Shown here in pieces: positions 28,598-30,486 of a stretch of 32,000 nt of DNA. The position numbers and the translations under genes were made by a program. Source of the stretch: Candidatus Caldarchaeum subterraneum (lineage in GTDB: Archaea > Thermoproteota > Nitrososphaeria_A > Caldarchaeales > Caldarchaeaceae); contig BA000048.1 of the NCBI GenBank assembly GCA_000270325.1, positions 895,471 to 927,470 on the forward strand. The letters are read 5' to 3'. Numbering within the stretch: position 1 is the stretch's first letter; the number at the start of each line of letters is the position of its first letter. The notes beneath the pieces were generated by a model. The model searched no databases and was not told the origin of the DNA. It saw only the letters and a program-made list of their open reading frames with translations.

Positions 28598-29092
28598 TCA
28601 GGGCCATTCGCTTTCGCCGCGTATAGTGTAGAAGGCCGTCGCGAGAACGATGTATCCGGCTATTGAGATGTAGATGCCCACGATTACTATGGCCAGCACG
28701 GCTCCCAAGACCAATAATAGCCCGCTTGTCTTGAACGTCTTTATCGACAATCTATCGCCAACGATGTCGAGAGATTTCTTGAGAAACAGAGCGGATATGA
28801 TGGCGAATATTGTGGAAGTTACAGCCACGGCTATGGTTCCAAGTAGGTAGTACCAAGGAAACGTGAACGCGTACACGTAGGGGTCTGGGTTCCCCAGCAT
28901 GGAGGCGTAGGCTGGGGGCCATGCCAGCATCAGCAACACAGCCGCCGCCACGCCAGCCACTGTGGCCGCTACGCTGTAGAACGCAAACCTGTACACCTTG
29001 GGCTGCTTAATCGCCTCTGAGATACGCTTCAACGCTATGACTATGGCTATCGTCCCCGCGGTTACCAGTGGCCCACCTACGGCAAGAGCCAC
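28598..29092 (-). CDS. Polytopic membrane protein (about 5 TM)
   Basis: This 164-aa ORF has a GTG start and a strongly hydrophobic helix pattern throughout. Confidence 0.7.
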   Translation of the reverse strand: MALAVGGPLVTAGTIAIVIALKRISEAIKQPKVYRFAFYSVAATVAGVAAAVLLMLAWPPAYASMLGNPDPYVYAFTFPWYYLLGTIAVAVTSTIFAIISALFLKKSLDIVGDRLSIKTFKTSGLLLVLGAVLAIVIVGIYISIAGYIVLATAFYTIRGESEWP

Positions 29093-29115
29093 AATCGGCC
29101 CACCTACGGCAAGAG
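29070..29115. repeat. Tandem 27-nt duplication (19/19 identical core) across the membrane-gene start
   Basis: GGCCCACCTACGGCAAGAG occurs at 29070-29088 and again at 29097-29115. On the minus strand the period of 27 nt (9 codons) is in frame and encodes LAVGGP twice. Confidence 0.9.
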
Positions 29116-29240
29116 ACCACTACGTCTACACCCACGAGACACGGAGGAATATAGGGCTGGCAGAGGTTCAGCGCCACCAGTTCGCAACTCTAGCCGACCT
29201 ATTAGCCGAGACAGCCACACAGACCTGCTGACAAGTTAGC

Positions 29241-29433
29241 GTCAACATGTTGACAGGATATTCACAAATATGAGTAGCTACAAGAAAAAGTTGTTGTAGC
29301 CGTCAACAGGTTGACGGTCTTGATGTTTTAGCAGTTTATACAGAACTTTATATCAGGCCTGTCAACATGTTGACAGGTACTACCATAAATGAGTAGCTAC
29401 AAAGTCCCTTTGTAGATGCGTCAACATGTTGAC
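29241..29433. repeat. Duplicated cassette carrying four copies of the 14-bp palindrome GTCAACATGTTGAC plus conserved hairpins
   Basis: The palindromes are at 29241-29254, 29302-29315 (central T to G change), 29361-29374 (extends to a perfect 20-mer at 29358-29377) and 29420-29433, spaced 61, 59 and 59 bp apart. Between each pair lie the motif ATGAGTAGCTACAA and a hairpin: 29277-29300 has a GCTACAA/TTGTAGC stem and 29397-29415 has a CTACAAAG/CTTTGTAG stem. Confidence 0.9.
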
Positions 29434-29786
29434 GGCTTTGGAAGAGCCCCTCTGCAGTTGCACTTTTCCGCAGTAGATTACCCCATGTCTTCCGGGCAGG
29501 TGAGCCTACGTCCCATTAGGAATAGTCTTGAGGAATAGCATTTGTAGACCGTCTCCTCAACACCTCTGCTATCAAGCATCCCGTATTGTGGTATGAGAAC
29601 GGCTGTGATATGGAGAAGCATTCTAACTCTGCTGATGATATGACGAATCACCGTGACTAAGCGCATGAGCTAACTCTGTTGTCAGTATGTCTCTGAATTG
29701 TAGCGCGACAGACATTCCAAGCAATCTCTCACGTAGAAATAGTAAACGTTTTACTACAACCTTTTGCATCTATTATGTGAAGAGCC

Positions 29787-29939
29787 ATGGTGAGCAAGAA
29801 AGCTGCTAAGAAGAAGGGGAAGTCGGCGACGAAGAAGAAGGCGAAGGCCAAGAGGCCGAAGGCTAAGCCTAAACCCGCTCCTGCTGAGAAGCCGGCCGAG
29901 AAGCCTGCTGAGCCTGCGGCTGAAGCGCCGGCGATGTAG
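29787..29939 (+). CDS. Possible 50-aa Lys/Ala/Pro-rich basic protein (below the ORF-track cutoff)
   Basis: The ORF runs from ATG at 29787 to TAG at 29937-29939 and encodes MVSKKAAKKKGKSATKKKAKAKRPKAKPKPAPAEKPAEKPAEPAAEAPAM. It is convergent with the last 71 nt of the TFB-like ORF and overlaps them. Confidence 0.35.
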   Translation: MVSKKAAKKKGKSATKKKAKAKRPKAKPKPAPAEKPAEKPAEPAAEAPAM

Positions 29940-30486
29940 CACCAAACCCCCTCTCACTATTTTTTACTTGTATCCAGAGCTTCTCCCTTATTGCTTTGGC
30001 TCTTCGACATATAGCGACAACTGAGAAACCGGAGGCCTTGGTCACCTCGGTCAAGGAGCAGCTTGGCGCGGCTGCAACATATAGCGCTGCGGTTGCGGCG
30101 ACATGTGTGTGTTCTCCGTATCTATGAAGGATGCTCGCGGCCTCTTCCACGTAGGGCTCTAGACCAAGCTTGTTGGCTACCATTCTTAGGAAAATTTGCG
30201 CCGACTGCCGCTGGTCAGCCACGGTGCTGTATCCAAGGGCTTCCGACACCTTCCTCAACGTTTTCAGGAAGCCTTTCTTTCGCTGGAGCATATCCTTTAG
30301 CTGAACAGGATGCTGGCTCTGTTTGCAGGCGATGTAGAGAACCGCGGCAACCAAAGTCTCGCCATTCCTTCCCTGTGACAAGCCCATTCTCCTGAGCCTT
30401 TCCAGCATCTCCCTAGCCAAGTCTACCACGTGGTTGGGCAACGAGAAAGCGTTGGCGTAGCTCGTCAGCAGCTCGTCGAGTCTCAT
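29869..30486 (-). CDS. TFB (TFIIB) paralogue consisting only of the two cyclin-fold core repeats; no Zn-ribbon, B-reader or B-linker
   Basis: The core-domain pattern is present: FSLPNHVVDLAREMLERLRRMGLSQGRNGETLVAAVLYIACKQSQHPVQLKDM...LGLEPYVEEAASIL...AATAALYVAAA...LTEVTKASGFSVVAICRRAKAIREKL. Only 50 nt separate its ATG from the upstream gene, so there is no room for an N-terminal domain. Confidence 0.85.
   Translation of the reverse strand: MRLDELLTSYANAFSLPNHVVDLAREMLERLRRMGLSQGRNGETLVAAVLYIACKQSQHPVQLKDMLQRKKGFLKTLRKVSEALGYSTVADQRQSAQIFLRMVANKLGLEPYVEEAASILHRYGEHTHVAATAALYVAAAPSCSLTEVTKASGFSVVAICRRAKAIREKLWIQVKNSERGFGATSPALQPQAQQASRPASQQERV

Follow-up and report, generated by a model that had tools for sequence, protein, structure and literature searches.

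A rare palindrome array in Candidatus Caldarchaeum subterraneum as a probable operator/centromere-like site cluster of mobile islands

The 32,000-nucleotide stretch of the Candidatus Caldarchaeum subterraneum genome analyzed here (the window; contig BA000048.1, positions 895,471 to 927,470) contains an evenly spaced array of short palindromes, and we determined that these palindromes are rare among related genomes and are borne by islands. We explain the 0.7-kb "gene-free region" in which they lie as a piece of mobile-island control DNA, neither as a chromosomal origin nor as a known RNA gene, and, judging from comparisons of the sequences, we consider it probable that the array is an operator/centromere-like cluster of sites for an island-encoded dimeric DNA-binding protein. 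The binding of a protein, the identity of that reader and the function of the sites are what we infer. Two related genomes, designated G009 and G012, are central to the comparisons, as is a second type of array (L001-type) that is also present in the window genome (G000).

The preliminary description of this DNA had listed four copies of a 14-bp palindrome, three of them perfect and one with a central change, and both direct reading of the sequence and a pattern search recovered all of them. The sequence GTCAACATGTTGAC starts at 29241 (palindrome 1, 29241–29254; cGTCAACATGTTGACa), 29361 and 29420 (palindrome 4, 29420–29433), and GTCAACAGGTTGAC at 29302–29315 (palindrome 2) differs only at the central position, having the center AG between intact arms; AG/CT centers are seen in other copies too. 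Palindrome 3 is extended to the perfect 20-mer CCTGTCAACATGTTGACAGG at 29358–29377, as had been noticed. These symmetric elements are given without strand, and the consensus of the four is GTCAAC-NN-GTTGAC. Shuffled sequence yielded a mean of 0.06 matches, none of 100 shuffles reaching four; the four-palindrome set is far beyond chance. The start-to-start distances are indeed 61, 59 and 59 bp, and the two tandem units are real, being recovered among the repeat families of the window with an offset of 119–120 nt. The palindromes had also been thought to lie on roughly the same helical face, which is wrong: a spacing of 59–61 bp corresponds to 5.6–5.8 turns at 10.5 bp per turn, and neighboring palindromes are therefore off one face of the helix. 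The surrounding gap of 694 bp (29093–29786) is ORF-poor, in agreement with the earlier reading. It contains no ORF of more than 62 aa except one that overlaps the membrane-protein gene, and no credible ORF was found either here or in the gap that holds the second palindrome locus of this genome. Micro-ORFs starting at ATGAGTAG were rejected, as neither their frame nor their start codon is conserved.

The palindromes are part of a larger lattice. A second motif, TGAGTAGMTAC (M2), occurs just four times in the 1.68-Mb genome, each time on the same strand and 29–30 nt past a palindrome start. Two of these copies, both TGAGTAGCTAC on the plus strand, lie in the array, at 29271–29281 in unit 1 (30 nt past the start of palindrome 1) and at 29390–29400 in unit 2 (29 nt past the start of palindrome 3). 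The GTAGCTAC core of M2, centered at 29277.5 and 29396.5, is in each case midway between two palindrome centers, those of palindromes 1 and 2 in the first unit, and a TATA-like TTTATA box at 29335–29340 is midway between the centers of palindromes 2 and 3. The resulting order, on a lattice of ~30 bp, is palindrome, M2, palindrome, TATA-like box, palindrome, M2, palindrome. The spacer that holds the TATA-like box (S1, 29316–29360, no strand) is conserved in alignments with two G009 modules as TTAGC.A.TTATA..GAACTTT.T.TCA.GCCT. Both inner hairpins are as previously described, namely GCTACAA-10 nt-TTGTAGC at 29277–29300 in unit 1 and CTACAAAG-TCC-CTTTGTAG at 29397–29415 in unit 2, both given on the plus strand; the G009 copies retain a stem at the former, whereas L001-type units lack it.

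The pattern of conservation suggests that the palindrome is recognized as double-stranded sequence. All 30 exact copies of GTCAAC-NN-GTTGAC, which come from six sources, have a pyrimidine (Y) at −1 and a purine (R) at +1, usually with C before and G after, and the site is therefore a palindrome of 16–18 bp, in full C-Y-GTCAAC-WW-GTTGAC-R-G. A three-palindrome module of ~133 bp has one copy in the window and two in G009, the flanks of which are unrelated and carry no target-site duplications; in every pair of these three modules the arms are identical at 36 of 36 positions, whereas the spacers are 57–67% identical. When nine units were aligned, the invariant columns were the two palindromes and AGTAG.TAC, and imperfect copies of the palindrome break its symmetry without compensation.

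These data also bear on the alternative that each unit is a small RNA gene, or that the array is a single transcript in which the palindromes serve as processing or terminator hairpins. Both the palindromes and the inner inverted repeats are capable of folding; in G009 module D, a single G-U-compatible change preserves the plus-strand inner stem; and a scan for bacterial-type promoters and terminators, which is not applicable to archaea, detected no promoter and flagged a terminator-like hairpin with a T-rich tail at palindrome 2. However, the palindromes display no compensatory change, an RNA stem would not need perfect symmetry through its center, and RNAalifold, applied to five units, detected no covariation (the covariation term was unfavorable, +1.8). 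Searches of Rfam 15 gave no match in the window region or in seven related loci, even at E values up to 10, the best overlapping hit scoring 18 bits against a gathering score of 140. Moreover, window-type and L001-type units do not share the inner hairpin, only the sequence GAGTAG.TAC, and, as far as can be read from the sequence, neither unit 1 nor the L001-type units have a BRE/TATA ahead of them. We give an RNA-based explanation little credence.

The genome and its relatives were searched for the 14-mer and for the whole unit, as had been proposed, and the site proved to be rare and island-borne. Among 76 genomes of the order, at least two exact copies were found only in the window genome (five), G009 (18) and G012 (two). 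Extending the search to 401 genomes of the phylum brought the number with at least two copies to four, the sole addition being a hot-spring MAG of another family with two copies (G173/G417). The compared genomes are mostly MAGs, and the gene calls in relatives are our own ORF calls. Apart from G009, a composite pattern search matched a single MAG contig and three contigs from metagenomes, and none from viruses; plasmid and phage collections likewise contained no match, and a literature search for the 14-mer matched no paper. A sequence model of the unit, applied to the 76 genomes of the order, identified three units in the window genome, three in G009 and none beyond. Within its own genome, the 701-bp gap region (29100–29800) matches only itself and the L001 palindrome.

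It had been cautioned at the outset that the motif might be a repeat of a known mobile element. It is indeed a motif of mobile islands specifically, though one with the character of a cis-acting site rather than of a transposon repeat: a MITE or an IS-derived repeat was rejected on account of the few units, the unrelated flanks and the lack of direct repeats. A CRISPR array was rejected as well, the "spacers" being homologous to each other and conserved between genomes. The idea of a restriction site (half-sites GTYRAC) was also dismissed, GTCAAC/GTTGAC being neither avoided nor enriched genome-wide (observed/expected 0.94–0.97).

The confinement to islands is most evident in G009, where all 18 copies lie at C2:354–435 kb, distributed over 12 loci and 81 kb, inside an insertion of ~117 kb (~346.7–463.4 kb). 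This island is inserted between orthologs of the G000 genes 314684–315298 and 315519–316442, which are 220 bp apart in the window genome. It encodes FlaI- and TadC-like proteins, HerA/VirB4/TrwB-like ATPases, Alba, a ParB_N-domain protein, a TFB paralog, restriction-modification (R-M) genes, and MCM-type and KaiC-like ATPases, and thus has the gene set of a thaumarchaeal-type ICE inside a strain-specific insertion; neither an integrase nor att repeats were found for these islands, including that of G009. Nine of the 12 loci are fully intergenic, compared with an intergenic fraction of 7% for the island (P = 8e-9), and a tenth is coding merely through an ORF made of the array itself. The loci comprise two arrays, 19 kb apart, and ten single-site loci scattered beside operon boundaries. 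As read by eye, the single sites lie 8–27 nt past a stop codon and often 15–35 nt before a TATA-like box of the next gene. One of the arrays, array D, is found ~100 nt downstream of the last gene in the operon of the ParB-like gene, and another site is 91 nt upstream of the ParB-like gene.

An alternative is that the arrays are a replication origin of the island, in which the palindromes would be iteron- or ORB-like initiator sites flanking S1 as an A/T-rich unwinding stretch. S1 is A/T-rich and bracketed by two sites, the operon beside array D encodes an MCM-type AAA+ protein, KaiC/DnaB_C-like ATPases and a Hel308-like helicase, and thaumarchaeal ICEs have diverse replication modules (PMC6563490). 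On the other hand, S1 is merely 45 bp long and is missing from L001-type arrays, G009 has not one array but two, 19 kb apart, and its ten further single-site loci at operon boundaries suit a regulator better. Neither orc1/cdc6 nor whiP was found beside an array; the Cdc6_C matches of the window genome (950–1189, 463839–464018 and 696862–697140) are not near the arrays at 20.8 kb and 924.7 kb. Because no orc1/cdc6 gene is nearby, the origin-like site, one of the options offered in the preliminary description, is the weaker one, and we regard it as unlikely.

Comparison of island variants revealed that the site itself changes. The G012 island occupies the same chromosomal site as that of G009 and is syntenic with it, although mosaic, its ends being 97–100% and its center 25–80% identical. 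The center contains no GTCAAC palindromes; instead, it has TTGACCATATATGGTCAA with a conserved flank of its own, in seven perfect copies and 11 with one mismatch, several of them in arrays of two to three. These copies are located at intergenic spots that match G009 sites, and one, between a thioredoxin-like and an MCM-type gene, is at the spot of array D. Across G012:C2:115490–178892 (L036, L079–L081), TTGACCATATATGGTCAA and its flank TAGAAAGCCGAAATTTTGGCGAATTAGG are present both singly and in arrays of two to three, 102–120 bp apart, a composite with a layout of the same kind as that of the window palindrome and its second motif. A contig of a further genome, G002, has the same operon and carries GTCAAT-NN-ATTGAC, a symmetric one-base change in both half-sites, with one copy at the spot matching G009 435436.

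Proteins with a ParB_N domain and an HTH are encoded on the same elements in G009 (C2:431637–432641), G002 (C32:5529–6545) and G012 (C2:181211–182131); this ParB-like protein consists of a ParB N-domain, the HTH and a C-terminal zinc ribbon, and has a GSRR motif. Relative to that of G009, the G002 protein is 48% and the G012 protein 39% identical, whereas the other genes of the G012 cluster are 69–78% identical. Variants with similar palindromes have similar HTHs (LGVSHEEIRRVL, LGVSHETIRLAL), and the variant whose palindrome differs has a different HTH (LNLPFETVRSMV). This is the pattern expected of a site and a reader that change specificity together, and in these three island variants it suggests that they have done so. 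Of the options first offered, two fit the comparative evidence of invariant arms, diverging spacers, symmetric flanks and changed palindromes in related islands: an array of operators bound by a dimeric protein, and a site that is centromere-like. The small RNA genes offered alongside them found no support.

As to the identity of the reader, the island ParB-like protein is our best candidate, albeit a tentative one. In G012, the ParB-like gene is not immediately preceded by a palindrome, and G417 has a match to the N-terminal domain of the ParB-like protein only. An island wHTH-CARF protein was rejected as the reader, being absent from G009, G012 and G417. Several small island proteins (105, 117, 81 and 181 aa, among others) had no Pfam or NCBIfam match, and those of 105 and 117 aa had no meaningful match in the PDB.

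The window is part of a strain-specific island of ~58 kb (~881 to 939 kb), the flanks of which map ~4 kb apart in G009. A stretch of it that extends from a Hef-like gene as far as HerA-NurA shares homology with a portion of the G009/G012 island, and the ICE gene set is present only in part: a TFB paralog and HerA-NurA were found, but no ParB-like gene. The array lies in a segment specific to the window genome (29099–29686, no strand) that is absent from G009 and G012. Homology to these genomes ends at 29098, within the 5' part of a gene for a DUF996 membrane protein (28598–29092, minus strand), and restarts at 29687–29735; the array therefore sits at a rearrangement scar. In place of this segment, which replaces 3.9 kb found in relatives, G009 and G012 have the DUF996 N-terminus, a 933-aa gene and an M48-peptidase gene. 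The DUF996 gene of the window is 5'-truncated (164 aa, compared with 206 aa in relatives), and hence its present start is probably secondary. A 27-nt tandem duplication at this start (29070–29115) coincides with the end of homology at 29098. An imperfect inverted repeat of 17 nt (29218–29234 and 29679–29695) flanks the strain-specific segment; that these are the ends of a MITE was rejected, since there is no other copy of the segment. To the right of the array, a TFB paralog consisting of cyclin repeats only (29869–30486, minus strand) has a close homolog (80%) only in G009 among five other genomes tested, the remaining ones having only ~30% matches, to full-length TFB. The window genome and G009 are thus the two genomes that have both the TATA-containing module and the truncated-TFB homolog, a pairing that is a co-occurrence of two cases, nothing more.

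No homolog of the ICE ParB-like protein was found in the window genome as a whole; the only ParB_N protein detected there is a distant, chromosomal one of 270 aa, which is conserved in relatives that lack the palindrome. As the genome seems to have no ParB-like gene of the ICE kind, its arrays may be orphan remnants of a decayed island, or may be read by another protein. The extreme form of the former, a functionless relic or a MITE-like repeat of a decayed island, would be in keeping with the missing cognate gene and with the truncation of the neighboring DUF996 gene at the rearrangement breakpoint. However, the four sites retain every one of their 48 arm positions, even though the intervening spacers differ from those of the G009 modules by 33–43%; there are no target-site duplications, the copy number is low, and conservation of L001-type arrays extends over five separate lineages or contigs. 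The perfect arms argue against long neutral decay, and we consider a mere relic rather improbable.

The only other palindrome locus of the window genome, at 20.7–20.9 kb, is laid out as palindrome, 15 nt, TGAGTAGATAC, palindrome. It is of the L001 type, lacking S1, and in four of the five lineages or contigs in which such arrays are conserved they lie upstream of R-M/defense operons. The operons differ between genomes: 1016-aa and 1026-aa (1018-aa in L043) genes, a 909-aa ATPase, or HsdM. Two diverged copies of the ~1016-aa/~1026-aa two-gene system are present in the window genome (G000:C1:21199–27322 and 715410–721503), the first protein of the system having an Eco57I/N6-methylase-like character. 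The metagenome contig L043 is 78% identical to the second of these copies, yet it has the array upstream as in the first copy.

Further observations concern the left side of this second locus. A 281-aa protein (G000:C1:18374–19219, minus strand; L040 4374–5219) matches nothing in Pfam or NCBIfam and is present in multiple copies within the genus, with 27 matches in G003, seven in G011 and five in G009. An IS family not yet described probably has this protein as its transposase or "recombinase". As a multicopy transposable-element protein that is abundant also in palindrome-free genomes, it was rejected as a reader of the site. Between it and the array (G000:C1:19200–20700; L040 5200–6700) is a stretch of ~1.5 kb with 57–71% GC, for which Rfam gave no match. 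Alignments with the copies in other genomes contain 40–144 gaps each, and because of these many indels the stretch is unlikely to be protein-coding. Parts of it are repeated in the window genome (e.g., at 693.1–693.7 kb, and a ~130-bp piece at six sites) and are also present in G009, G012 and metagenome contigs. A 1.8-kb transposable element has been described for C. subterraneum (PMC3293823), and the stretch may be the non-coding part of this element, or a structured RNA.

A further alternative is that the palindromes are crossover or landing sites, at which site-specific recombination would shuffle island modules or defense cassettes. The window array lies in the segment that replaces 3.9 kb of relatives, and the L001-type arrays precede different R-M/defense operons in different genomes. 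The 6+2+6 layout of the palindrome also recalls serine-recombinase sites. The breakpoints, however, are 143 nt and more than 250 nt away from the palindromes, and that of the L039 cassette is more than 300 nt downstream of the array. In addition, we found no recombinase that accompanies the sites; the 281-aa neighbor is, as noted, a multicopy element protein that is abundant without the palindrome as well. Recombination at these sites therefore has, in our estimation, only a slight chance of being correct. We assign an equally slight chance to a reading of the arrays as "sentinel" or decoy sites that titrate or sense the ParB-like regulator of an incoming related island. On this reading, the arrays would be kept under selection in genomes without the cognate island protein, and it is proposed because L001-type copies lie directly upstream of differing R-M/defense operons in several lineages. 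If it were true, the invader would be excluded in the manner of plasmid-type incompatibility, or the defense operon next to the array would be activated.

An operator/centromere-like role, the reading that we prefer, can be compared with known systems. In archaea, partition is represented by AspA/ParB/ParA of the Sulfolobus plasmid pNOB8 and by SegAB, where a palindrome ahead of the operon is bound by a small site-specific protein which that operon encodes. Neither of these systems is known to have sites dispersed over the element, and no AspA- or SegB-like gene was recognized here. Dispersed sites are found on the IncP plasmid RK2, where the KorB operator OB, with the core TTTAGCGGCTAAA, is a short perfect palindrome present at roughly a dozen positions, some close to promoters and others distant from them, and KorB, a ParB-family protein, is both a partition protein and a global repressor (PMC11790492). 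Similarly, the palindrome studied here (16–18 bp; 18 copies in the G009 island) is a short repeated site on its element, as are sites of the parS/OB type, palindromes of 13–16 bp or more, and the 12 loci over 81 kb are accompanied by an island gene for a ParB-like HTH protein. Unlike OB, these sites are hosted by an archaeon, with promoters of the BRE/TATA kind, and are found in arrays of 57–61 bp period with a second motif as well; the protein proposed to read them carries a zinc ribbon at its C terminus and is lacking from the window genome.

The arrays are reminiscent of sopC of plasmid F, to which SopB binds and which comprises 12 copies of a 43-bp repeat, every copy containing an inverted repeat of 16 bp (PMC3177203). 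Both consist of tandem direct repeats that each contain an inverted-repeat site, and sopC is downstream of a parB-type gene much as array D of G009 follows its ParB-like operon. They differ in that the arrays described here have three to five sites, a 57–61-bp period and two alternating kinds of spacer (the TATA-like S1, and M2), and in that the window array adjoins no par gene. In gene content, the G009 island resembles thaumarchaeal ICEs, which, according to Krupovic et al. 2019 (PMC6563490), characteristically carry ParB-like and TFIIB-like genes; shared with G009 are VirB4/HerA-like and TraG/TrwB-like ATPases, TadC, FlaI, a ParB-like protein and a TFB homolog. That paper covers genes rather than cis-sites, and in its text "palindrom" appears in the reference list only.

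Taken together with these parallels, we propose a mechanism in which a sequence-specific protein of two-fold symmetry, derived from large integrated ICE-like islands of the Caldarchaeales, would bind the palindromes. In complete islands, single sites, located in intergenic DNA beside the starts and ends of operons, would control operons or mark their boundaries. Clusters of three to five sites at 57–61 bp, in which palindromes alternate with a TATA-like box and TGAGTAGMTAC on the ~30-bp lattice, would be high-occupancy nucleoprotein sites. The system would then function in the manner of KorB on RK2 and of SopB on sopC, combining island-wide transcriptional control with a centromere-like site.

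Integrated conjugative-type islands of Thaumarchaeota and Aigarchaeota have so far been known from their gene content only, and the organisms are uncultured. The island variants described here provide three natural pairs of variant and palindrome (GTCAAC-NN-GTTGAC, GTCAAT-NN-ATTGAC and TTGACCATATATGGTCAA), each with a matching variant of the ParB-like HTH, which reduces the question to a simple in vitro test of specificity. Success in such a test would demonstrate that archaea have a system of regulation and partition like that of KorB and, if our interpretation is true, the palindrome would provide a sequence tag with which to find and type such islands in metagenomes.
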